Shown: positions 1 through 63,267 of the stretch, piece after piece | How positions within the stretch are numbered: position 1 is the first letter of the stretch | How the letters are laid out: the number at the start of each line of letters is the position of its first letter | Source of the DNA: Schmidtea polychroa | Taxonomy: Eukaryota | Length of the DNA stretch: 64,000 bases | NCBI GenBank assembly: GCA_044892525.1 | Contig: CM097885.1 | Span: 23,004,001-23,068,000 of the forward strand | Direction: 5' to 3' | Notes under the pieces: model-generated | Databases searched by the model: none | What the model saw: the letters and a program-made list of their open reading frames with translations, nothing else | Told to the model about the DNA's origin: nothing | Position numbers and translations under genes: made by a program

Positions 1-27016
<27,016 letters not shown>

Positions 27017-32063: not shown

Positions 32064-38432
<6,369 letters not shown>

Positions 38433-40339: not shown

Positions 40340-42954
40340 TTAATATTATTCATATTGTTGTTTTCCATATTAAAATGTGTAAGTAAATTTTATTACTTCT
40401 TTTGAATTCTAATTATTTGTATAAAGGTGATAATTTAATGGTCACCCTCGACCGGAGGGAGATAAACTCACGGTAGTCCTCTCTATTGTTTTACCTCTTA
40501 CCCTACGCTGTCCTGTGAATAGTTCCATATTTGGTACATATCAATTCTGTAGTTAATGCCAATTATAAAATCATCAAAATTCGTGCTGTACAATATTTAT
40601 GTTGATATTTCATAATAAGTAAGAAGATATGGAGAATATTTCTGGCAATCAATTAATACTTTATAATTTAAGATTTTTATTTCTTTCACAAATAAAAATG
40701 GATGTTGTAGGTGTTATGAGTGATCTTATTTATGTTTATTATATTATATATACTCAAAGCTAGATGTTATGTGCTAGTTCTATATGTAGTTACTATGTAT
40801 TATTAATGTTTTTGTAGAATATTGTAGAACTCAAAAGAGTTTCCGTTAAAAGAACTGTATTGGGACAGCTGGGGTGCTTGTATGTTGATCTTTTAGTAAA
40901 ACATAAATTACAAATTATTATAAAATATGAAAAATTAATTTATCTTTAACAAAGTTTGTTTATTATAAAATATAACAACCTTCAATTTGGGAAGTTGAAG
41001 ATTTTGATATAGGATCTCTTTGGGTGAATGTTATTATTGCGATATTACAGGAAATTTTGATAATTAGTGTTGGAATTTTCTGAGAATTAATCGAATAATA
41101 ATAGAATCTGTTTTGGACTGATGCCCTTTCTTGGATTTTCTTTTATTTCTTATATTTCTAATCGAATATGACTTTTTTAAATATTCCGTAATTTAGGAGA
41201 TTTTAGATAGTTTTTTAATTTTTAATTTAATTTTTTTATTTGTTGATTATTCCATAACGATAATTTGCTATAGTTAATTATCGCTATATTTTTTTATACG
41301 CCGTACGCGATAACAAAAATAACCATTCATTATAAATCTTAAACACAAATAAAAAAATATAACACTACACTACAGTATATTATGTTATTACAATATGTTG
41401 GACGCAATTAAATTCAAATATTCTTCCAACATTTATTTATTAATTAGTAATTAACTAATTATATTTGTGATCAATAATTACTACGTCTCAGTTGTTTAAA
41501 TTCTCTTGTATTTTCTAAAAATTTAAACAATTAAGGCGTGGTAATTATTGATATTGATGTAATTATTGATCACAAATATAATTACTTGATTTAAAATAAT
41601 TTAATATAATTTAATATCAATTTTAATATACAAATCAACACAAATAGTTTTTTCAACTAGCTGATCACACTTATTACTTTTAAACTATATTATTTTTAAT
41701 AAAGAGTTTTGAAACTCGTTACGCAATATAAACTCAATTTTAAGGAAGATGAGAATAAAAGTAGTTAACCATATAGTCCAGATTATTTTAAAAATTTAAA
41801 GACACAATTTCGAAAGATGTGGTACAAATTATTCGACTTAACACTTGTCAAAGTTATTATTACCTTCTATTGCTAATTTTCAATGTATAAAAATATACTA
41901 ATTCAAAATATGTTAAAGTTTATAAATGACCTTAAACAAAACCTTTAGGATAAAAGGTTTGGAACAAATATTTTATCAGATCGTGTTTTGACACTGCCCA
42001 GTAATTTGCAATACGCTACAATTAATAATATCAGTAAAATCCTGTATGTTTTGTTAACCATTGATCTGTTTTTACTTTCGTTTAACATTTCATTTATTTT
42101 TATAGTAGTGAATAGTAAGGACTCCAGGACACTTTCAAGGTCATCCCAATGTCCAGATCAAATATAGGTCAATCGAATCATTTTTTTTTAATTAACATTT
42201 TATTTAATTACTTCTTTTTAATTTTTTTTTTTTTTTTTTTTTTTTTTCATTTTAATTTTATTAATTAATTATTTTATTATGTTTTATTTTAATTTATTAC
42301 ATTTAATTAATTTATTTAGTTTATTAATATTTTATTTTAATTACTTACGCTATTTAATTATTATTATTATTATTATTATTTTTTTTTTTTTTATTTTATT
42401 TTTTTTTTTTAATTAATTTATTTATTTTTTAATTTTATTTAATTACTTCTATTTATTTTTTTTTTCTTTTTAATTTTCTTAATTAATTATTTTATTATGC
42501 TTTTATTTTAGTATTATTTTATTATTTTATTATTTTATTTATTATTATTATTTTTTTTTTTTTTTTTTTTTTTTTTATTTTTTATTTTATTTTTTATTTT
42601 TTTTTTTTTTAATTTTACATTTACATTATATTCTAACAAGAGGTAAATTATAACGATAATATTTCAATTTGAATAAAATTTTAATTAGTAATTATTCAAT
42701 TTGAATAAATTTTAATTAGAAATTATTTAATTTATTATAAAATAAAACGCTGAGTTAATTTTAGATAAACTGGATATTAATATTTCGGAAAAAATAAATA
42801 AATAAATAAAATAAACACAAAAATAATATTTCTTACTTGAAACTAATTATCTAAATTAATTGGACAAATGAATAATTAAATGATAAAACACATTTTAATT
42901 AACTAAGTCAAACAATTCACAATATATATTTTATTATTCACATAAATTTAATTG

Positions 42955-45900
42955 TTAAAGTGCTTGTTTCGATTTGCATTCATTTCTAGACATAGCAGTT
43001 GCAATATGCATTTGGCGAATCTTATAGTGACCGTAGGCATAACTTTCATTACAATTGTACCAATACCTTTTATCGTCCAAACATTGGAGAGCTCGTTTTT
43101 CTGTCATGAAAGTATACAACTGATGATTGACACTTCCTATTCTTTTTTGTGGGATGCTCACTGTTCCACCATCAGTATACACTTTTTTATAGGCTTCATG
43201 TGTAAGATTAGAGTTTGTAAGTCTTATTCCTTTGGCTTTTAGAGTGTTTTTATCGCCTTGGAGTGAGTAGCACTTGGGTCGAAGAAACACCCATTCTTTA
43301 TATTGATTTCCTTTATTCTCATCCTTGAATTTCCCGATTACCGAACAAATTTTATCTGAGAACAATGGATCAGTCACTGGATAATTTGAAGTATCTAGGA
43401 GCCCATCGGCAATCATTTTTGGATATAGTTGTAAGCGTAAATCTACATTTTTACACTCTAAAAAGAAGGAATCTGTGTCACCGGCTACGATATTAATTTG
43501 ACAATTGAATTCTTCTCTATAACTCTGTAGTTCTTTATATTGAAACTGGTACATGCGAAGTTTGGATAAATCAAGTACGGTTTGTCCAATATACATTGGT
43601 CTATCTAAACACACAATTTCCTTATTGAGTATAACAGCAATGAGATCATCCGCAATCTTGATGCTACGACGAAACATAGGATTACTACAATAAGTTATCA
43701 ATCTTTTGCTTTTGCTGCATAATCTCAAATTTATACGTTTCTTCAAGTTTTCCACAGTTTTACCGTATAAACTGTTGTTCTTTAACTTATAATAATCTCG
43801 CTGAAACGAATCTGTACTAGCTGCTCTCATTTTGGTATTGTAATCAATATAACCTTTGAAAATAGCCACTTGCTTGAATTCTACAGCACGATTAACTTTT
43901 GTGACTTTTGCGCCGTAACTCAACCACTCTGTCAAAACTCTACCATTAACTACATAGTTTTTCTTAGGCTCATGAGTTAACAACAGCTTTTCAACTTTAC
44001 TACCAGGTGGATAACAAAGCTCAGGAGCTATAGGTAAATCATCTAGTTTACCTTGTATACTATCAGGAATGACGATGTCAACCTCTAGAACATATCCAAG
44101 ATCTCCATCAAACTTATCCCCATTTGCACATCTTTCAACAATACCATTCATTTCAGTCTGATCATTTATCCATCTAAATTCACCAACAGGAAGTTTTTGC
44201 GACAGCGCCCATCCATATAAATTATTAACATCTAGGTATGACATTTGTGTTGATTCATCAGCTTCAACATGATGTTTGTTGATAAATGTCATTCCACCAC
44301 GAATACCAGCTTCAAATAAACGGTAAAGCTCTGGATCTTGAATAAGTTCTACTGGTTCAGGTAACTGTTTAATAGCTGATGCCCAACTTAATCCGGGTAT
44401 GGAAACAAACGATAGAGCCTCAAGTCCATCTTCGTCAAATGTTTTTTCTCTGAAAGCTTCAAAAACATCGGCCAACAGAAAAACATCCAACTTGAGATAT
44501 ACTAGCATGTAATCTAGCAGTGTCTCACAGTTGTATTGTCGCCAGATTCGATTTGCATGTATATAATCTTCTTGACTAACTCCCTCCCAAATCGGTGGTA
44601 ATTCTGTTATTGACTGTAAAACATCCATTGATGTAGCCATATCATAAGGAAATATGCCTTTACCAGTTATTAAATGCGAATTGAAAATCTTTGAAGTAAG
44701 TGGAAGACGTGGCAAGTTTTTTGATAAATTTGCCAAGCTGCTATTTAAAAATTGTAAAGAATCAATGAATCTAATTCTTCTGCCTTTCGATGTCGCTGTA
44801 AGTGTGAGAAACTTTTCTGTTGATTGAGGAATAACAATTAAATTCCAATCGGGGAATTTTCCAATTGCATATTTTAATATATGATGAATGTCATATCCAC
44901 GAAGATTATGAAATACAACAGGTAAAGACGGATTGATTCTTCTAGCCAAATTACAATCTTGACACGCTGCTCCGAGATATTGACCAGTAAAATGATCATG
45001 ATCTCGAACAGGTATATTGATAATCTTTTTACAAAGGTAGCAATGAGTTTGAGTCGTGAATTCTTCCTGCTGTTCCCAAGTGAGTTCCATCATTTCCTTT
45101 GATCCATTAATTTTATACCACGGATAAACTATGTCTGTAGCTATATCATCCAATGCTTGTATGAACTGAATGATACAGTTTTTCCCAACAAATGTTTCAT
45201 TTCGGATCGGACAACCTTGATGAAGAAGCACAAATTCAGATGCAATCGGCTCATGTTTTTGGAAGTGTTTGTCATCTAGAGGTAATATCGATTCAAAGTC
45301 CGCGTAGACAACAAACTGCTGTTTTATAGTTTTACTCCAGTCTTTAAATTCGATATATTTATTCTCTGGCATTGAGTATAGAGTCGTACGCTCCACATTC
45401 TTCCTACAAAGACCTATATGTCTTTCAAAAGCAGGACGTTTTTGAAACCCATGAAGACATGTATGACACCAATGTGATTGGATTCTGACTCCTTCTACTC
45501 TATCTCTGTAATTCAGCAGTCGATCGAGATTAGTTACAGCCAAAAAATGATAATTTAATTCTAAAATTTAGTTAATATTTTTAATGATTAAAAGAAATAT
45601 TACCTTCTTCAATCAATAGGAGATATATCCGAGATCCCGTCGAAGTACTTCTATATACCAAGTCAACGAACGGATTCTTGAAAATATCATTAGTTTTTTG
45701 TTTAATTGGATCTTTATTATATTTGAGAACATTGATCGCTAGATTTGGATTCATTGCTTCAAATTGGCAAATGTTAACCAACTTCATCGGAAACCATTCA
45801 AATTTCCATTTTAAGTCTTAAAAACAAATTTCAATGATATATGACATTATATATATATATATTACCACTTAAATTATATTTCATTACTCTTTCTCTGTGA

Positions 45901-46938
45901 TGTTTTATGTCATCATAATGTAATACGGCCAGTATGCTATATAAAAAGCAGAATTGATCATTATTTTGAACATTAACTAAAGCCTGACAGTTTTTCAGGT
46001 AATTTGGCGTTTTAATGTAACTTGAACCTAAGTAAATATCTTGATTTATATATATAATAATGTAAATAAACTTACCAGATACATGTATTATGTCTGATAA
46101 TTTAGTTAAAATCATAGTAACTTCTAATATTTTATGAATTCTCCACCCACTACTTTGTTGAGTGTATTTTTCCAACTTTTCTTTTAATTTTTCAATTCCA
46201 TCATTAATAAATGAAGATGACATTGTAATTGCTTTATTCGACAAACACCATTTTTTAATTTCACCATCCTCTTTGATAAACTCTGCACAAAGTCCAAATT
46301 GGATTTTTACTGTACCCATTCGTTGAATATGATCTTCTATTTCTTTGATGAGACAATCTGGAACAACAATGTCAGGAGAATTAATTGCAGATACATCGCT
46401 TGTCAATTCAACACGAGAACCATTTAAGTCAGACTCCCGACGTGGACACAATTGTATGTTAGAGTCTCCATTTCCGTAAAATATTGACTTTCGTTTTGTG
46501 GTGCCAGAGTTTTGTCTAACTATATTTATAATTAATATTAAACAACTTAAATAACATAACTTGTAACATATTCTTTAATCTGCTTAGGATCGTATGATGT
46601 ATTCATTTTCGATTGTACTATAAAAAATTAATAATTGTTAATAGTAGAAAGAGTATTACTTTTAGTGATCATCCTGCTCTTCGTTTCTTCGAATCTTCTA
46701 AGATGGTGTCCGTGTTGTCGTACAAACATTAACCACCTACCTGGTGATATAATGAGACATTCCGGACATATGTAACCCGATAAGGTAGAGTCATTTATCT
46801 TGAAATATGATGATGTAACTGATTTACAGTTCTCCACATCTTCATGACTTTCGGCAATACAAAATTTATATAAACTGCATCCGTTCACTAAAAGAAAATA
46901 ATCATTAATATTAGATAGAGAATAAAAATTTATTCACT
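42955..46938 (-). CDS. polB: Protein-primed family-B DNA polymerase, left copy, spliced (predicted 1236 aa)
   Basis: Mirror of the right copy; exons 46938, 46887-46660, 46617-46561, 46519-46076, 46027-45866, 45816-45604, 45560-42955. One amino-acid difference seen (IQGKL versus IQDKL). Confidence 0.9.
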
Positions 46939-47374
46939 TATATAAGTTAAATTAAAAGTTTAAATGACAAACATTTGAAAAGTTACTGCTTATATATTAC
47001 ACATGATTACATTCTGACCAATCAAAATCAAGGAAGGAGTAGGAAAAATAAATGCATTACGTTGCAGTATTTTAAAACTTAAATTTTAAAACACATTTTA
47101 ATGATAAAGTTGACATTCGACATTTTCATAATAATTTAATAAAAAATAATGCGATGAACCCACAAAGTAATATCATTTTTCATCAAATTGCAAAACAGTA
47201 ATAACGTTTTCATAAATTGTAACAAAGTAATAACATATTTCAGATAAATTTTCAACAGTTGTAAAATATTTAAGCAAATTGTAACAAGATTAGAAAATAT
47301 TACAACAAAGTAGTAACATATTTCAGAAAATTTCAACAAAGTTGTAAAATATTTATCAAATTGTAACTAAAATA

Positions 47375-47800
47375 ATAAAAATATTGCAACAAAGTAATAA
47401 AATAATGATGTTAATTGGGACAAATCAATACATTATTTCGAAGACGGACAACAAATTAAAAAGAATATTGTAATAAATTGTGAAGTCTTTCAGTAAATTA
47501 CAACAAAGTAATAACATATTTCGGAAATATTTCACCAGATGTAAAATATTTAAGCAAATTGTTATAAGATTATAAAAATATTGCAACAAAGTAATAAAAT
47601 AATGATGTTAATTGGGACAAATCAATACATTATTTCGAAGACGGACAACAAATTAAAAAGAATATTGTAATAAATTGTGAAGTCTTTCAGTAAATTACAA
47701 CAAAGTAATAACATATTTCGGAAATATTTCACCAGATGTAAAATATTTAAGCAAATTGTTATAAGATTATAAAAATATTGCAACAAAGTAATAAAATAAT
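47375..47800. repeat. 197-bp tandem duplication built on AACAAAGTAATAA subrepeats (mirrored at ~49200-49630)
   Basis: gatgttaattgggac occurs at 47407 and 47604; degenerate subrepeats extend to ~47160. Confidence 0.85.
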
Positions 47801-47819
47801 ACAACATTTTAAACTCTAG

Positions 47820-48570
47820 ATCAATCCATTTTATAGAAAATTAAATTTTATCTCTATAATATATGAATAAATATACAAGGAAATTACGTTAGCTGTATGA
47901 AAAATACAAATTTATCGTAAAAACATGTGTGTGTATTACACACAACATACGTGACATAATTTTTAATCAAGCTATTTTATAGAAAATTAAATTTTATCTA
48001 TATAATATATGAATAAATATACAAGGAAATTACGTTAACTGTATGAAAAATACAAATTTATCATAAAAAACATGTGTATATTATACACAAAACAAGATAC
48101 ATAATTTCTAATCAATCCATTTTATAGAAAATTAAATTTTATCTCTATAATATATGAATAAAATCCTAAGAACATTACGTTAACTATATGAAAAATACAA
48201 ATTTATCGTAAAAACATGTGTGTATTACACAAAACATACGAGACATAAATTTTAATCAATCCATTTTATAGAAAATTAAATTTTATCTATATATTATATG
48301 AATAAAATCCTAAGAACATTACGTTAACTATATGAAAAATACAAATTTATCGTAAAAACATGTGTGTATTACACACAACATACGAGACATAAATTTTAAT
48401 CAATCCATTTTATAGAAAATTAAATTTTATCTATATAATATATGAATAAAAATCCAAGAAAATTACGTTAACCGCGCGAAAATACAAATTTATCGTAAAA
48501 ACATGTGTGTATTACACACAAAGCGACAAACTAAAGTTTTAATTGAGCCATTTTGTAGAGAATTAAATTC
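47820..48570. repeat. ~145-bp tandem array (five units plus a partial) in the left arm; one unit plus a partial in the right arm (~49010-49180)
   Basis: TTTT(A/G)TAGA(A/G)AATTAAATT at 47829, 47975, 48120, 48264, 48408 and 48551. Confidence 0.9.
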
Positions 48571-48669
48571 TGCCTATACATTGTTACACTTAAATCCCAA
48601 TCGAACAAAGAGAAAAGAGAGAAAAAGAGAGAGAAAAAACAGTAGAGTAGGGTATTGTGTGGACCCGGG

Positions 48670-48911
48670 TGAAACCTTTGCATAGATCTCTTCAAGACCT
48701 TACGAATGATGTGAATAAAATATAATTAAAATTTTAAAATACCGCAACGTAATATAAATTTAAAAAAAAAAAAATTTAAAAAAAAAAAAATTTAAAAAAA
48801 AAAAATTTAAAAAAAAAATTAAAAAAAAAAAAAAAAAAAAAATACCCCCCGGGGAGGAGGTATGACTCATATGTCTTTGTGACGTCATCGATGACGTCAT
48901 ATGTCTTTGTT
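48670..48911. other. Unique central spacer (loop) of the palindrome
   Basis: Bounded on both sides by CCCGGG; contains A-tracts, CCCCCCGGGG, TGACTCA and the perfect 20-bp palindrome TGACGTCATCGATGACGTCA (48880-48899). Confidence 0.9.
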
Positions 48912-49948
48912 CCCGGGTCCACACAATACCCTACTCTACTGTTTTTTCTCTCTCTTTTTCTCTCTTTTCTCTTTGTTCGATTGGGATTTAAGTGTAACAA
49001 TGTATAGGCAGAATTTAATTCTCTACAAAATGGCTCAATTAAAACTTTAGTTTGTCGCTTTGTGTGTAATACACACATGTTTTTACGATAAATTTGTATT
49101 TTCGCGCGGTTAACGTAATTTTCTTGGATTTTTATTCATATATTATAGAGATAAAATTTAATTTTCTATAAAATGGATTGATCTAGAGTTTAAAATGTTG
49201 TATTATTTTATTACTTTGTTGCAATATTTTTATAATCTTATAACAATTTGCTTAAATATTTTACATCTGGTGAAATATTTCCGAAATATGTTATTACTTT
49301 GTTGTAATTTACTGAAAGACTTCACAATTTATTACAATATTCTTTTTAATTTGTTGTCCGTCTTCGAAATAATGTATTGATTTGTCCCAATTAACATCAT
49401 TATTTTATTACTTTGTTGCAATATTTTTATAATCTTATAACAATTTGCTTAAATATTTTACATCTGGTGAAATATTTCCGAAATATGTTATTACTTTGTT
49501 GTAATTTACTGAAAGACTTCACAATTTATTACAATATTCTTTTTAATTTGTTGTCCGTCTTCGAAATAATGTATTGATTTGTCCCAATTAACATCATTAT
49601 TTTATTACTTTGTTGCAATATTTTTATTATTTTAGTTACAATTTGATAAATATTTTACAACTTTGTTGAAATTTTCTGAAATATGTTACTACTTTGTTGT
49701 AATATTTTCTAATCTTGTTACAATTTGCTTAAATATTTTACAACTGTTGAAAATTTATCTGAAATATGTTATTACTTTGTTACAATTTATGAAAACGTTA
49801 TTACTGTTTTGCAATTTGATGAAAAATGATATTACTTTGTGGGTTCATCGCATTATTTTTTATTAAATTATTATGAAAATGTCGAATGTCAACTTTATCA
49901 TTAAAATGTGTTTTAAAATTTAAGTTTTAAAATACTGCAACGTAATGC

Positions 49949-50085
49949 ATTTATTTTTCCTACTCCTTCCTTGATTTTGATTGGTCAGAATATATTTATT
50001 TTTCCTACCCCTTCCTTGATTTTGATTGGTCAGAATGTAATCATGTGTAATATATAAGCAGTAACTTTTCAAATGTTTGTCATTT
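49949..50085 (+). promoter_or_regulatory. Putative Pol II promoter of right polB (mirrored at ~46960-47055 for the left copy)
   Basis: Reverse CCAAT boxes (ATTGG at 49980 and 50025), TATATAAG at 50051, and Inr-like TCATT at 50080, about 30 bp downstream of the TATA. Confidence 0.6.
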
Positions 50086-50108
50086 AAACTTTTAATTTAA
50101 CTTATATA

Positions 50109-53100
50109 AGTGAATAAATTTTTATTCTCTATCTAATATTAATGATTATTTTCTTTTAGTGAACGGATGCAGTTTATATAAATTTTGTATTGCCGAAAGT
50201 CATGAAGATGTGGAGAACTGTAAATCAGTTACATCATCATATTTCAAGATAAATGACTCTACCTTATCGGGTTACATATGTCCGGAATGTCTCATTATAT
50301 CACCAGGTAGGTGGTTAATGTTTGTACGACAACACGGACACCATCTTAGAAGATTCGAAGAAACGAAGAGCAGGATGATCACTAAAAGTAATACTCTTTC
50401 TACTATTAACAATTATTAATTTTTTATAGTACAATCGAAAATGAATACATCATACGATCCTAAGCAGATTAAAGAATATGTTACAAGTTATGTTATTTAA
50501 GTTGTTTAATATTAATTATAAATATAGTTAGACAAAACTCTGGCACCACAAAACGAAAGTCAATATTTTACGGAAATGGAGACTCTAACATACAATTGTG
50601 TCCACGTCGGGAGTCTGACTTAAATGGTTCTCGTGTTGAATTGACAAGCGATGTATCTGCAATTAATTCTCCTGACATTGTTGTTCCAGATTGTCTCATC
50701 AAAGAAATAGAAGATCATATTCAACGAATGGGTACAGTAAAAATCCAATTTGGACTTTGTGCAGAGTTTATCAAAGAGGATGGTGAAATTAAAAAATGGT
50801 GTTTGTCGAATAAAGCAATTACAATGTCATCTTCATTTATTAATGATGGAATTGAAAAATTAAAAGAAAAGTTGGAAAAATACACTCAACAAAGTAGTGG
50901 GTGGAGAATTCATAAAATATTAGAAGTTACTATGATTTTAACTAAATTATCAGACATAATACATGTATCTGGTAAGTTTATTTACATTATTATATATATA
51001 AATCAAGATATTTACTTAGGTTCAAGTTACATTAAAACGCCAAATTACCTGAAAAACTGTCAGGCTTTAGTTAATGTTCAAAATAATGATCAATTCTGCT
51101 TTTTATATAGCATACTGGCCGTATTACATTATGATGACATAAAACATCACAGAGAAAGAGTAATGAAATATAATTTAAGTGGTAATATATATATATATAA
51201 TGTCATATATCATTGAAATTTGTTTTTAAGACTTAAAATGGAAATTTGAATGGTTTCCGATGAAGTTGGTTAACATTTGCCAATTTGAAGCAATGAATCC
51301 AAATCTAGCGATCAATGTTCTCAAATATAATAAAGATCCAATTAAACAAAAAACTAATGATATTTTCAAGAATCCGTTCGTTGACTTGGTATATAGAAGT
51401 ACTTCGACGGGATCTCGGATATATCTCCTATTGATTGAAGAAGGTAATATTTCTTTTAATCATTAAAAATATTAACTAAATTTTAGAATTAAATTATCAT
51501 TTTTTGGCTGTAACTAATCTCGATCGACTGCTGAATTACAGAGATAGAGTAGAAGGAGTCAGAATCCAATCACATTGGTGTCATACATGTCTTCATGGGT
51601 TTCAAAAACGTCCTGCTTTTGAAAGACATATAGGTCTTTGTAGGAAGAATGTGGAGCGTACGACTCTATACTCAATGCCAGAGAATAAATATATCGAATT
51701 TAAAGACTGGAGTAAAACTATAAAACAGCAGTTTGTTGTCTACGCGGACTTTGAATCGATATTACCTCTAGATGACAAACACTTCCAAAAACATGAGCCG
51801 ATTGCATCTGAATTTGTGCTTCTTCATCAAGGTTGTCCGATCCGAAATGAAACATTTGTTGGGAAAAACTGTATCATTCAGTTCATACAAGCATTGGATG
51901 ATATAGCTACAGACATAGTTTATCCGTGGTATAAAATTAATGGATCAAAGGAAATGATGGAACTCACTTGGGAACAGCAGGAAGAATTCACGACTCAAAC
52001 TCATTGCTACCTTTGTAAAAAGATTATCAATATACCTGTTCGAGATCATGATCATTTTACTGGTCAATATCTCGGAGCAGCGTGTCAAGATTGTAATTTG
52101 GCTAGAAGAATCAATCCGTCTTTACCTGTTGTATTTCATAATCTTCGTGGATATGACATTCATCATATATTAAAATATGCAATTGGAAAATTCCCCGATT
52201 GGAATTTAATTGTTATTCCTCAATCAACAGAAAAGTTTCTCACACTTACAGCGACATCGAAAGGCAGAAGAATTAGATTCATTGATTCTTTACAATTTTT
52301 AAATAGCAGCTTGGCAAATTTATCAAAAAACTTGCCACGTCTTCCACTTACTTCAAAGATTTTCAATTCGCATTTAATAACTGGTAAAGGCATATTTCCT
52401 TATGATATGGCTACATCAATGGATGTTTTACAGTCAATAACAGAATTACCACCGATTTGGGAGGGAGTTAGTCAAGAAGATTATATACATGCAAATCGAA
52501 TCTGGCGACAATACAACTGTGAGACACTGCTAGATTACATGCTAGTATATCTCAAGTTGGATGTTTTTCTGTTGGCCGATGTTTTTGAAGCTTTCAGAGA
52601 AAAAACATTTGACGAAGATGGACTTGAGGCTCTATCGTTTGTTTCCATACCCGGATTAAGTTGGGCATCAGCTATTAAACAGTTACCTGAACCAGTAGAA
52701 CTTATTCAAGATCCAGAGCTTTACCGTTTATTTGAAGCTGGTATTCGTGGTGGAATGACATTTATCAACAAACATCATGTTGAAGCTGATGAATCAACAC
52801 AAATGTCATACCTAGATGTTAATAATTTATATGGATGGGCGCTGTCGCAAAAACTTCCTGTTGGTGAATTTAGATGGATAAATGATCAGACTGAAATGAA
52901 TGGTATTGTTGAAAGATGTGCAAATGGGGATAAGTTTGATGGAGATCTTGGATATGTTCTAGAGGTTGACATCGTCATTCCTGATAGTATACAAGATAAA
53001 CTAGATGATTTACCTATAGCTCCTGAGCTTTGTTATCCACCTGGTAGTAAAGTTGAAAAGCTGTTGTTAACTCATGAGCCTAAGAAAAACTATGTAGTTA

Positions 53101-54092
53101 ATGGTAGAGTTTTGACAGAGTGGTTGAGTTACGGCGCAAAAGTCACAAAAGTTAATCGTGCTGTAGAATTCAAGCAAGTGGCTATTTTCAAAGGTTATAT
53201 TGATTACAATACCAAAATGAGAGCAGCTAGTACAGATTCGTTTCAGCGAGATTATTATAAGTTAAAGAACAACAGTTTATACGGTAAAACTGTGGAAAAC
53301 TTGAAGAAACGTATAAATTTGAGATTATGCAGCAAAAGCAAAAGATTGATAACTTATTGTAGTAATCCTATGTTTCGTCGTAGCATCAAGATTGCGGATG
53401 ATCTCATTGCTGTTATACTCAATAAGGAAATTGTGTGTTTAGATAGACCAATGTATATTGGACAAACCGTACTTGATTTATCCAAACTTCGCATGTACCA
53501 GTTTCAATATAAAGAACTACAGAGTTATAGAGAAGAATTCAATTGTCAAATTAATATCGTAGCCGGTGACACAGATTCCTTCTTTTTAGAGTGTAAAAAT
53601 GTAGATTTACGCTTACAACTATATCCAAAAATGATTGCCGATGGGCTCCTAGATACTTCAAATTATCCAGTGACTGATCCATTGTTCTCAGATAAAATTT
53701 GTTCGGTAATCGGGAAATTCAAGGATGAGAATAAAGGAAATCAATATAAAGAATGGGTGTTTCTTCGACCCAAGTGCTACTCACTCCAAGGCGATAAAAA
53801 CACTCTAAAAGCCAAAGGAATAAGACTTACAAACTCTAATCTTACACATGAAGCCTATAAAAAAGTGTATACTGATGGTGGAACAGTGAGCATCCCACAA
53901 AAAAGAATAGGAAGTGTCAATCATCAGTTGTATACTTTCATGACAGAAAAACGAGCTCTCCAATGTTTGGACGATAAAAGGTATTGGTACAATTGTAATG
54001 AAAGTTATGCCTACGGTCACTATAAGATTCGCCAAATGCATATTGCAACTGCTATGTCTAGAAATGAATGCAAATCGAAACAAGCACTTTAA
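50109..54092 (+). CDS. polB: Protein-primed family-B DNA polymerase, right copy, spliced (predicted 1236 aa)
   Basis: Exons 50109, 50160-50387, 50430-50486, 50528-50971, 51020-51181, 51231-51443, 51487-54092 join in frame (3711 nt). Motifs: SSGW, GSSYIKTP, VNVQNNDQFCF, C2HC finger, ExoI YADFES, endonuclease-VII-like CxxC..RDHDH.TG..LGAAC..CNL, ExoII FHNLRGYD, FIDS, KGIFPY, ExoIII YLKLDV, RGG, Pol A YLDVNNLYG, Pol B KLKNNSLYGK, Pol C GDTDS, PKCY, KAKG. Confidence 0.92.
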
Positions 54093-56168
54093 CAATTAAA
54101 TTTATGTGAATAATAAAATATATATTGTGAATTGTTTGACTTAGTTAATTAAAATGTGTTTTATCATTTAATTATTCATTTGTCCAATTAATTTAGATAA
54201 TTAGTTTCAAGTAAGAAATATTATTTTTGTGTTTATTTTATTTATTTATTTATTTTTTCCGAAATATTAATATCCAGTTTATCTAAAATTAACTCAGCGT
54301 TTTATTTTATAATAAATTAAATAATTTCTAATTAAAATTTATTCAAATTGAATAATTACTAATTAAAATTTTATTCAAATTGAAATATTATCGTTATAAT
54401 TTACCTCTTGTTAGAATATAATGTAAATGTAAAATTAAAAAAAAAAAAATAAAAAAAAAAATAAAAATAAAAAAAAAAAAATAAAAAAAAATAATAATAA
54501 TAAATAAAATAATAAAATAATAAAATAATACTAAAATAAAAGCATAATAAAATAATTAATTAAGAAAATTAAAAAGAAAAAAAAAATAAATAGAAGTAAT
54601 TAAATAAAATTAAAAAATAAATAAATTAATTAAAAAAAAAAAAATAAAATAAAAAAAAAAAATAATAATAATGATAATAATAATTAAATAGCGTAAGTAA
54701 TTAAAATAAAATATTAATAAACTAAATAAATTAATTAAATGTAATAAATTAAAATAAAACATAATAAAATAATTAATTAATAAAATTAAAATGAAAAAAA
54801 AAAAAAAAAAAAAAAAAAAATTAAAAAGAAGTAATTAAATAAAATGTTAATTAAAAAAAAATGATTCGATTGACCTATATTTGATCTGGACATTGGGATG
54901 ACCTTGAAAGTGTCCTGGAGTCCTTACTATTCACTACTTTTTATTGCGACTAATCAAATACTTTTTTCTTGTTTGACAAACTTTTGACATTGCCTTCATT
55001 AAGATTATGTTACACATTCATCCACAGTCACAATGAAAATACATGAAATGCCTTAAGATTACAATTCATAATAAAAGCATCGATATATTACTGATTTATA
55101 GTCTTCAAGCTCTCTTTTTAATAAATTCAATGGAAAAAATAATCAGTTATGAAATTGGAAAAAAAGGTTCTTATAATATTAGAAACAGGGAAGAAGAAAA
55201 AACAGGAAAATAAAACTTGTTTGGTTAAAATATATATTTTGCAAAGGAAATCGCACTAAGAATTTATTTCTGAATACATCTTATTGATAAGTCTTTGTAA
55301 AGCTTCTGATAAATAAATAAACTAAAACTTCATATAATAAATTTTATTTAAATAAATTCTGCAATATGCATTCTTCAATACTATGCGAATCTGTTTAATA
55401 AAGATTTTCATGAAGAATTGCATTTGTTCTCAAATTGATTCGTATTTCTTAACTTCCGAAATTCTTTTTTTTCTAATTCGAGCATAGTTCTCTTCCCTGA
55501 TATCTTTTTGTATTATTAAAGCAATCCTCTCTTCTTCATTATTTTAAAGATAATTTAGGAAGTTTTTTTATATTTTTAATAAAATATTTGTTTTAACCAT
55601 ATAAAGAAGAATATTACACGTAAATCTAAATATTTTAATGGAGAATCATAATTTTAGTTTGATGATAATATTATTTAAAGTATTAGGGGCTCTGCCCCTG
55701 TTCGCTTCGCTTCAACAACCCCGTTAGAACGTGGGGTTAATGTTAAAGTTAATATCCAGAGAATTCTTGGACAGGAGTAAGATTCAGTTTATTAATATGT
55801 TTACATAACTATGATAAAAGATAATAGCATTAACCGTTATTAAGTAATATAGAACGATAAGTACAAAAGAATAAATACTTCATAAAAAAAATATAAAAAA
55901 AAATTAAATAAAATAAAATAAAAAAAGGTAAAATTCGGATAGAGGGGACCCTTAGCTTTTTATATATAGAGAGATGCCTGGGCGACCAACTGCTCATGAG
56001 CCGTAGGCAGCTTTCGGCGGAATAATTTTATGCGCCTTTGAGCATAATATCATTTTTATATTAATATTTAAATTTTTATATTTATGAAAAGAAATTTATT
56101 TTTTTGCGATTCATTTTATTTTAATATTTTTAAAATTGGATCCCGCATTGTTTGCTGTTGGTCAGGCC

Positions 56169-56887: not shown

Positions 56888-63267
<6,380 letters not shown>

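Follow-up and report, generated by a model that had tools for sequence, protein, structure and literature searches.

The locus

We analysed a 64,000-nucleotide stretch of the Schmidtea polychroa genome (GenBank assembly GCA_044892525.1, contig CM097885.1, positions 23,004,001 to 23,068,000, forward strand), hereafter called the window, with a GC content of 27%. Self-comparison of the window showed that positions 42104–54938 (12,835 bp) form one long inverted repeat. Each arm of this element carries a gene (polB) for a protein-primed DNA polymerase (pPolB), and the ends are of the type found in Polintons. The extents of the arms agree with an earlier note on the window, which had described arms of 6566 and 6027 bp, a 242-bp spacer and an inverted repeat over about 98% of the element. 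All palindromes reported here were read from assembled contigs. The features, in window positions, are as follows.

42098–42103 (+): left target-site duplication, 6 bp, TTTTAT; identical to the hexamer at 54939–54944
42104–42175 (+): left outer terminus with a Polinton-type AGTAGT start, the end motif of PMC8097293; putative protein-primed origin and integrase site
42104–48669 (+): left arm, 6,566 bp, from self-comparison and arm alignment
42176–42950 (+): AT-rich low-complexity segment 3' of polB, with most of the small arm-to-arm differences
42955–46938 (−): pPolB, left copy, mirror of the right copy
46940–47290 (−): putative promoter of the left arm, with a TATA-like word and a CCAAT-containing 45-bp unit found by sequence inspection
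47299–47800 (no strand): 197-bp tandem array, 2.5 units, mirrored at 49202–49703
47815–48569 (no strand): 144–146-bp tandem array, the chief arm asymmetry, with about five units on the left and about one on the right
48641–48940 (no strand): central module, 300 bp, two inward-facing Polinton-type termini (29-bp stem) around the spacer 48670–48911
48912–54938 (−): right arm, 6,027 bp, from self-comparison and arm alignment
50109–54092 (+): pPolB, right copy, seven exons, 1,236 codons plus stop
50528–50971 (+): terminal-protein (TP) domain in exon 4, little-finger/PAD fold
51020–51500 (+): vOTU-like protease region, exons 5–6 and the start of exon 7
51487–54092 (+): exonuclease and polymerase domains with an inserted endonuclease-VII-like motif, exon 7, from profile matches
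54867–54938 (−): right outer terminus, from the arm alignment and genome terminus matches
54939–54944 (+): right target-site duplication, TTTTAT, matching the left hexamer

The element begins and ends with AGTAGT...ACTACT, and pairing of the arms starts at the first base. The inversion ends exactly at these termini, and the flanking DNA beyond the target hexamer is unlike on the two sides. The outer 5.7 kb of the arms align with 5,695 matches and 5 mismatches in 7 alignment blocks, and the inner 280 bp with 277 matches and 3 mismatches. Outside one tandem array the arms of the window copy are 99.9% identical. The other differences are a few small indels and a 45-bp duplication; the CCAAT-containing unit is present once on the left arm and twice on the right. 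The arms cover 98.1% of the element, of which only 93.9% is pairable because of about four extra 144–146-bp units in the left arm and the extra 45-bp unit in the right. The palindrome is thus confirmed as real. The 242-bp length of the spacer also stands, but this is not a plain spacer. It is the interior of the 300-bp module with its 29-bp Polinton-like termini.

The arms are wholly accounted for by polB and repeats. Ten non-polymerase Polinton proteins, namely two each of major capsid protein (MCP), minor capsid protein (mCP), integrase (INT) and ATPase and one each of protease (PRO) and TBP, gave no tblastn match inside the element, as expected from the earlier statement that it encodes no other recognisable protein.

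The polymerase gene

The right copy of polB is predicted to have seven exons (50109; 50160–50387; 50430–50486; 50528–50971; 51020–51181; 51231–51443; 51487–54092). The six introns are of the GT-AG type, 41–50 nt long and all in phase 1, so that every internal exon (window 50109–51486) is symmetrical; every exon is free of stops. Positions in the left copy equal 97047 minus those in the right, and the two products differ by one amino acid. An intact, outward-facing pPolB (PF03175, E 4e-31) had been described for each arm. This was right, but the six introns had been overlooked; the 870-codon frame is the last exon alone. Four of the five internal exons (2, 4, 5 and 6) tile intronless homologues, and exon 3 (18 aa) has no match. 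One contig end joins exon 6 to exon 7 across intron 6; that the run in question is RNA is a guess. Among the rows listed in the joint table there was no splice joint at a predicted intron. The polB region is present in 20 rows from 9 studies, with no run recorded as RNA. These sequencing-run rows show that the region exists outside this assembly and are silent on the palindrome.

The model of exon 4 (pLDDT 88.9) has PolIV 4ir1 as its best match (Z 8.6, root-mean-square deviation 2.4, 92 residues aligned) and also matches adintovirus and MELD PolB in BFVD. The little-finger fold is the criterion for a PRD1-like terminal protein given in section 8 of PMC11071308, which also gives the domain order TP-vOTU-exo-pol. 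The vOTU-like region is assigned by its position and its Cys and His residues: C196 and H303 are invariant across 69 homologues. H7 of the last exon is invariant. Exon 7 matches PF03175 with an E value of 4.2e-31 and PF02945 with 2.5e-4, the latter short of its cut-off. The catalytic motifs of the polymerase are present, and the model of a homologue (P0003, 61% identical) has phi29 polymerase as its best match (E 3.5e-20).

Codon changes between the window arm and most open-frame arms of other copies run at about 12 synonymous to 1–2 non-synonymous, where the neutral expectation is 20.5% synonymous. Judged from this excess, polB is under purifying selection. The last exon is open in 22/30 arms, and three copies are interrupted at the matching place on both arms. 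In a quick tree, the family polymerase clusters with metagenomic proteins of 50–65% identity. One close relative (L055, 52% identity) is a canonical Polinton in which polB lies at one end of the gene cluster and is followed downstream by integrase, ATPase-like, protease-like and TBP genes.

A family of palindromes

The 29-bp terminus has 115 forward and 109 reverse matches (224) in the 781-Mb genome, and a control pattern has none. Four contigs dominate the match lists. Among the 100 of 224 matches listed there are 43 terminus pairs, of which 33 span 11.9–14.9 kb, 7 are shorter and 3 are longer. We examined 22 further copies, 10 chosen for unusual size and 12 typical. An exact 6-bp duplication flanks 20 of them; of the other two, one is mismatched at two bases and the second lies between mirrored flanks. 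With the window copy this gives 21 duplications with 20 distinct hexamers. Both full polB copies are retained in 15/22, and the other 7/22 are truncated by a deletion in one arm. Asymmetric forms move too, since two deletion derivatives have a common junction but lie between unlike duplications. Between the shared 29-bp termini, none of the 22 copies has an integrase or capsid gene of its own; the extra DNA of long copies consists of nested insertions or unexplained non-coding sequence, not family genes. We conclude that the family has about 110 copies and is recently inserted.

The genome-wide search with the termini, which the earlier note had recommended, thus found other palindromic copies with duplications of their own (20/22). 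The notion of a distinct family of palindromic pPolB elements is largely borne out by the 6-bp duplications, the complete polymerase and the lack of integrase. A one-off rearrangement, the reading reserved for the case that no other copy were palindromic, is rejected: 33 of the 43 listed pairs fall at 11.9–14.9 kb, and the copies have their own target duplications.

One family copy (L017/L018, G000:C1:15.38-15.40 Mb) is inserted in a complete Polinton, immediately before the integrase match of the latter; the target hexamer contains ATG, which may be the integrase start. At G000:C21:271382-286276 and C3:11850942-11866011, same-orientation family polB copies lie 11–12.5 kb apart, possibly as tandem or rearranged insertions. 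Two scans of viral contigs confirmed no relatives. None of 75 metagenomic loci had an inverted repeat over about 210 bp, which is uninformative because most of these contigs are shorter than 6 kb and short-read assembly collapses palindromes.

Homogenisation of the arms

In a comparison of 15 elements, the median difference in 4 kb was 3 substitutions between sister arms, as against 17 between arms of different elements. The copy at C1:73k, which has a nested partial copy and mirrored flanks, was left out of this comparison. Of the alleles private to one element, 58 are found on both arms; another 66 are confined to a single arm and stem mostly from the mosaic copy C1:189.3M. The right arm of that copy (L040) differs from its sister by 63 substitutions, many of them common to the window lineage; it is a product of recombination between subfamilies, and the copy was left out of the mutation totals. 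Tandem-unit counts are unequal between the arms in 9/14 copies.

In the last exon, variants on both arms and shared between elements comprise 17 synonymous, 5 non-synonymous and 0 stop changes. The corresponding counts are 6/20/4 for variants on both arms but private to one copy, and 8/18/2 for variants on one arm only. The shared and private classes differ (Fisher p 6e-5, with non-independent events). Two private variants were tested and were found only in both arms of their own locus. Decay mutations thus appear mirrored on the two arms of a copy, and conversion at the integrated palindrome would be the simplest cause. Remobilisation of a dead copy whose donor was then lost is an alternative that the data allow. 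It appears that part of the arm identity arises at integrated copies and not during replication.

The central module and a second lineage

The central module is kept at the axis of the copies, with its inward-facing AGTAG termini, and folds into a stem. One copy (C1:40.0M) has a 2-kb module with related ends instead, and copy 186.2 has none. The module was also considered as a free-standing miniature inverted-repeat transposable element. This is unsupported, since only one match genome-wide lacks the preceding base of the arm. The simplest reading of the centre is that it represents the ancestral polymerase-side end unit and the axis of a fold-back.

Other polB loci are diverging pairs as well. 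In a second lineage (L044, G000:C1:126063650-126064650), the mirrored centre holds an unrelated 300-bp double-terminus module that folds strongly. This type of centre has at least 40 scored sites of 2,582 candidates, and 0/40 lie within 20 kb of the 78 integrase loci compared, a weak blank. The comparison with the second lineage covers its centres. The L044 centre adjoins a TATAAAC word. Further diverging polB pairs with differing inter-arm distances are found at G000:C3:32.53 Mb, C1:139.68 Mb and C1:264.97 Mb; the centre of the first is 88% like the 2-kb module of copy C1:40.0M.

Co-resident Polintons

The genome also holds a young family of complete Polintons with MCP, a PLA2-fused integrase, ATPase and their own pPolB. 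There are at least 138 near-identical integrase loci of this family, and 3,085 terminus matches at four per element would correspond to about 770 copies. One complete MCP/PLA2-INT/ATPase/pPolB element, with a 6-bp duplication, is nested in a palindrome-family copy. The complete Polinton also makes 6-bp duplications and shares its first 8 terminal bases with the palindromes. Both of its ends typically start with a unit of about 246 bp that has two inverted 24-bp termini (L003:3521-3767, L005:1743-1988). Its polB starts next to this unit and reads inward. With such a double-terminus unit, an end could fold back on itself when single-stranded. In the nested element (L005:1988-2112), an inverted 110-bp copy of the left flank is found on the right side, between the right terminus and a terminus remnant with the target duplication. 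This is the product of end-to-end copying that ran into host-side DNA.

Recent derivation of the palindromes from this Polinton of about 770 copies is rejected for the polymerase, which is 28% identical and falls in the other half of the quick tree on a long branch. At least three more integrase families are present. One of them is very young, with many identical scores, and is 63–65% identical to the L055 integrase (for example G000:C2:80907339); it is a candidate helper or bipartite partner. Several integrases could thus serve the palindrome in trans.

Comparison with known systems

Polintons are 13–25 kb long with terminal inverted repeats (TIRs) of 100–1,500 bp (10.1101/2023.08.22.554363), and TIRs of vertebrate Polintons measure 46–1,447 bp (PMC8097293). 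The present family shares several characters with Polintons/Mavericks and alpha-type adintoviruses. The AG- or AGT-repeat termini and a duplication within the 5–8 bp (typically 6 bp) of Polintons (10.1101/2023.08.22.554363, PMC8097293, PMC8502044) are found in the window copy and 20/22 others. The pfam03175 pPolB with an OTU and an N-terminal TP domain is likewise as described for these elements; in the present enzyme the TP, vOTU, exonuclease and polymerase domains are all found, the vOTU by its Cys/His pair and position. The polymerase nests with a canonical metagenomic Polinton in the quick tree. Unlike Polintons, the palindromes are without INT, MCP, mCP, ATPase and PRO. In the window element no open reading frame or tblastn match with two Polinton integrases points to a retroviral-like integrase gene, and no MCP, mCP, ATPase or protease module lies inside it. 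The inverted repeat is about 6 kb (6.0–6.6-kb arms in 12.8 kb), well outside the TIR range of Polintons, and there are two polB copies and six introns. The element works like a Polinton replicon but, on integrase, capsid module and TIR length, is not an autonomous Polinton.

Palindromic derivatives of DNA transposons offer a second comparison. The cichlid piggybac-5 (10.1101/2024.04.05.588311) and the Galileo two-TIR elements (PMC3573991) are described as two opposed parent segments with intact ends, in many copies and mobilised in trans. The present family is also palindromic, multi-copy and without an integrating enzyme, and its duplication length matches that of the candidate helper. Those elements, as described, have lost their coding capacity, whereas the palindromes keep a selected replication gene on both arms; they are also much longer than Galileo copies (1.7–2.2 kb, PMC3573991). 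Transpovirons and cytoplasmic linear plasmids also descend from Polinton-like viruses, and they have lost the capsid but retain the replicase. They are not described as palindromic, and transpovirons have a helicase-fused enzyme (PMC5499653, PMC11071308). Replicases may move as autonomous modules (10.64898/2026.10.13.758929), but in the examples given there pPolB is always paired with integrase. Gene conversion is reported to expand the terminal palindromes of linear plasmids (PMC3673629). Both genome surveys (10.1101/2023.08.22.554363, PMC8097293) selected pPolB linked to INT, so polymerase-only palindromes would be skipped. No palindromic or polymerase-only Polinton was found in the literature searched, which included PMC6431247 and 10.64898/2025.12.11.693146 and had most subscription papers, supplements and Repbase outside its scope. 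The layout is apparently undescribed.

The proposed interconversion of palindromic duplex and snap-back hairpin under protein-primed strand displacement has parallels among linear replicons. Vierula and Bertrand (1992) reportedly found a hairpin/duplex deletion derivative of kalilo. A hairpin plasmid of pGKL1 and symmetrical adenovirus minichromosomes are of the same kind. These are known as episomal or laboratory-made forms that depend on a helper for replication. The present family, unlike them, is nuclear and integrating, has about 110 copies and encodes its own polymerase.

Origin and propagation

We consider it probable that the element is a Polinton satellite that drives its own replication, borrows an integrase and arose when the polymerase-side end folded back. 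The ancestor would have been a Polinton whose polB lay at one end and read inward, with two inverted termini enclosing a short end unit. At this unit a single strand would have folded back and been copied into a head-to-head palindrome, and the capsid, ATPase, protease and integrase genes would have been lost. The spliced TP-vOTU-exo-pol enzyme, whose parts are present, may prime at both outer AGTAGT ends, with the linear duplex copied by strand displacement. The displaced strand could snap back into a hairpin of about 6 kb whose open end is again an origin. The 6-bp duplication is consistent with insertion by the integrase of a co-resident Polinton. The pattern of arm identity points to arm-to-arm gene conversion, presumably both in the replicating lineage and at integrated copies. 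More speculatively, the narrow size range near 13 kb suggests that doubling and the tandem stuffer hold the size near that of the helper (13 vs about 15 kb), which could suit packaging in helper capsids. The recurrence of the arm-module-arm centre with an unrelated module in the second lineage supports the satellite reading as a whole.

The earlier note had set a snap-back replicon that borrows integrase and a distinct palindromic family against each other as alternatives. Both are largely upheld together. For the replicon, the self-priming polymerase and the missing integrase stand; the transposition of asymmetric derivatives weakens the case for an obligate hairpin cycle.

Several observations weigh against the satellite scheme. 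Free linear, hairpin or protein-linked DNA is outside the evidence, which consists of assembled contigs and no raw long reads. Splicing is supported by a single contig end, at intron 6, and other contigs cross introns 1–3 unspliced, so that expression is not established. The outer and inner termini diverge after AGTAG, which leaves the origin of the outer end unexplained. The one candidate helper with ends that were read shares no more than 8 terminal bases with the palindromes, and its polymerase is just 28% identical. A complete parent with the family polymerase was not found, and 0/78 integrase loci (78 of 106 listed) lie within 15 kb of 71 family-type polB loci. In the mutation classes, copy 98.4 adds 7 non-synonymous changes and a spurious stop call, without which the private both-arm class is 6/13/3; the shared class counts elements, not sites, and 12/22 of its events come from the window copy. 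Mirrored private variants could also be partly an artefact of consensus building or polishing.

An unlikely alternative is that the palindromes are passive foldback-type derivatives, like piggybac-5 and the Galileo two-TIR elements, formed by chromosomal rearrangement or TIR extension and moved by a helper, with polB a dispensable passenger. Palindromic non-autonomous transposons are already published. Asymmetric and polB-broken derivatives also have clean duplications, including the pair with a shared deletion junction at different sites. Conversion in place would account for the arm identity without hairpin replication, and the inverted flank copy at the right end of the nested Polinton is an example of end-to-end copying at an integrated element. 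A passenger would decay, however, whereas here the TP, Cys/His and catalytic motifs are intact, the synonymous excess between lineages is strong and most last exons are open.

It is a little less probable that the palindrome is the polymerase segment of a bipartite Polinton, whose partner carries integrase and capsid genes without polB and which it complements mutually. When the genome is compared with the L055 polymerase, the top 53 matches all belong to the palindrome-family type, and in the young L055-like integrase family 0/31 loci are near any of the 91 listed PF03175 matches. This blank is weak because the 91 are the best of 8,819 candidates. Against such a division of labour, both complete families checked have their own polB, and none of the 22 copies has integrase or capsid genes of its own within the shared ends. 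The multipartite segment raised in the earlier note, which would resemble the segments of bidnaviruses, therefore stays without a same-ended partner in the 22 copies or the 43 listed pairs; the pairs come from the 100/224 termini listed, and a 40.9-kb pair lies outside the 22 copies.

We give still less weight to an obligate hairpin-ended replicon. The true unit would then be a 6.5-kb molecule, capped by protein at one end and closed as a hairpin at the other; the palindrome would be the dimer formed when it replicates, to be resolved at the central module. The strong conservation of the module at the axis, its stem and its near-absence elsewhere in the genome fit this idea, and the 144-bp asymmetry of copy 98.4 is on the opposite side of the spacer from that of copies 150.4 and 189.3, as a flip would give. 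A hairpin monomer would force symmetric arms in each cycle, yet unequal tandem units are common, one copy has the 63-substitution mosaic arm and an asymmetric deletion derivative is found at two sites. Moreover, copy 186.2 does without the module, and no resolvase is encoded. Finally, long inverted repeats can mislead long-read consensus, and one copy close to the end of a contig lacks a duplication and lies between mirrored flanks, but an assembly or library fold-back, which the earlier note had named as refuting the element should raw reads (not in evidence here) fail to join the arms, is very unlikely given the distinct target duplications at 20/22 other loci, the exact halt of the inversion between differing flanks, the fixed central module and the resolved single-arm differences.

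Other features of the window

Two hAT-type transposase frames (PF05699) are present at 7629–9563 (+, 644 codons) and 32981–33784 (−, 267 codons). Outside the element, 20220–20324 (−) has a 35-residue match (51%, E 4e-5) to the Polinton major capsid protein and is probably a relic. The window also contains a 12-bp tandem array (973–1461), an inverted TAA/ATT microsatellite (35111–35399), a perfect 211-bp tandem duplication (36869–37296) and a dispersed repeat pair of 72% identity (1687–1967 with 61474–61754).

Implications

A broader claim can be put forward tentatively, with rather less confidence than the satellite scheme itself. Polymerase-only palindromic Polinton satellites may be a recurring class, to which several Polinton lineages each gave rise on their own when a double-terminus end unit folded back. 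They would replicate with their own enzyme as protein-capped duplexes and 6-kb hairpins, be size-matched to helper capsids and borrow an integrase, and at the limit form the polymerase half of a split Polinton.

The definition of Polintons joins polymerase and integrase, and the two genome surveys, which select for this pair, would miss elements of the present kind. The family suggests that a replication module can persist under selection as a mobile element of its own. It points to helper–satellite relations among Polintons, akin to those of defective virus genomes. A 6-kb snap-back product is easy to detect, so that the family allows the panhandle or hairpin model of Polinton replication to be tested directly; if the broader claim is true, these abundant simple palindromes would give the first natural access to the single-stranded panhandle that has long been proposed as an intermediate. 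With roughly 110 such 13-kb palindromes dispersed through it, this animal genome also provides a natural assay of arm-to-arm gene conversion and of palindrome stability.

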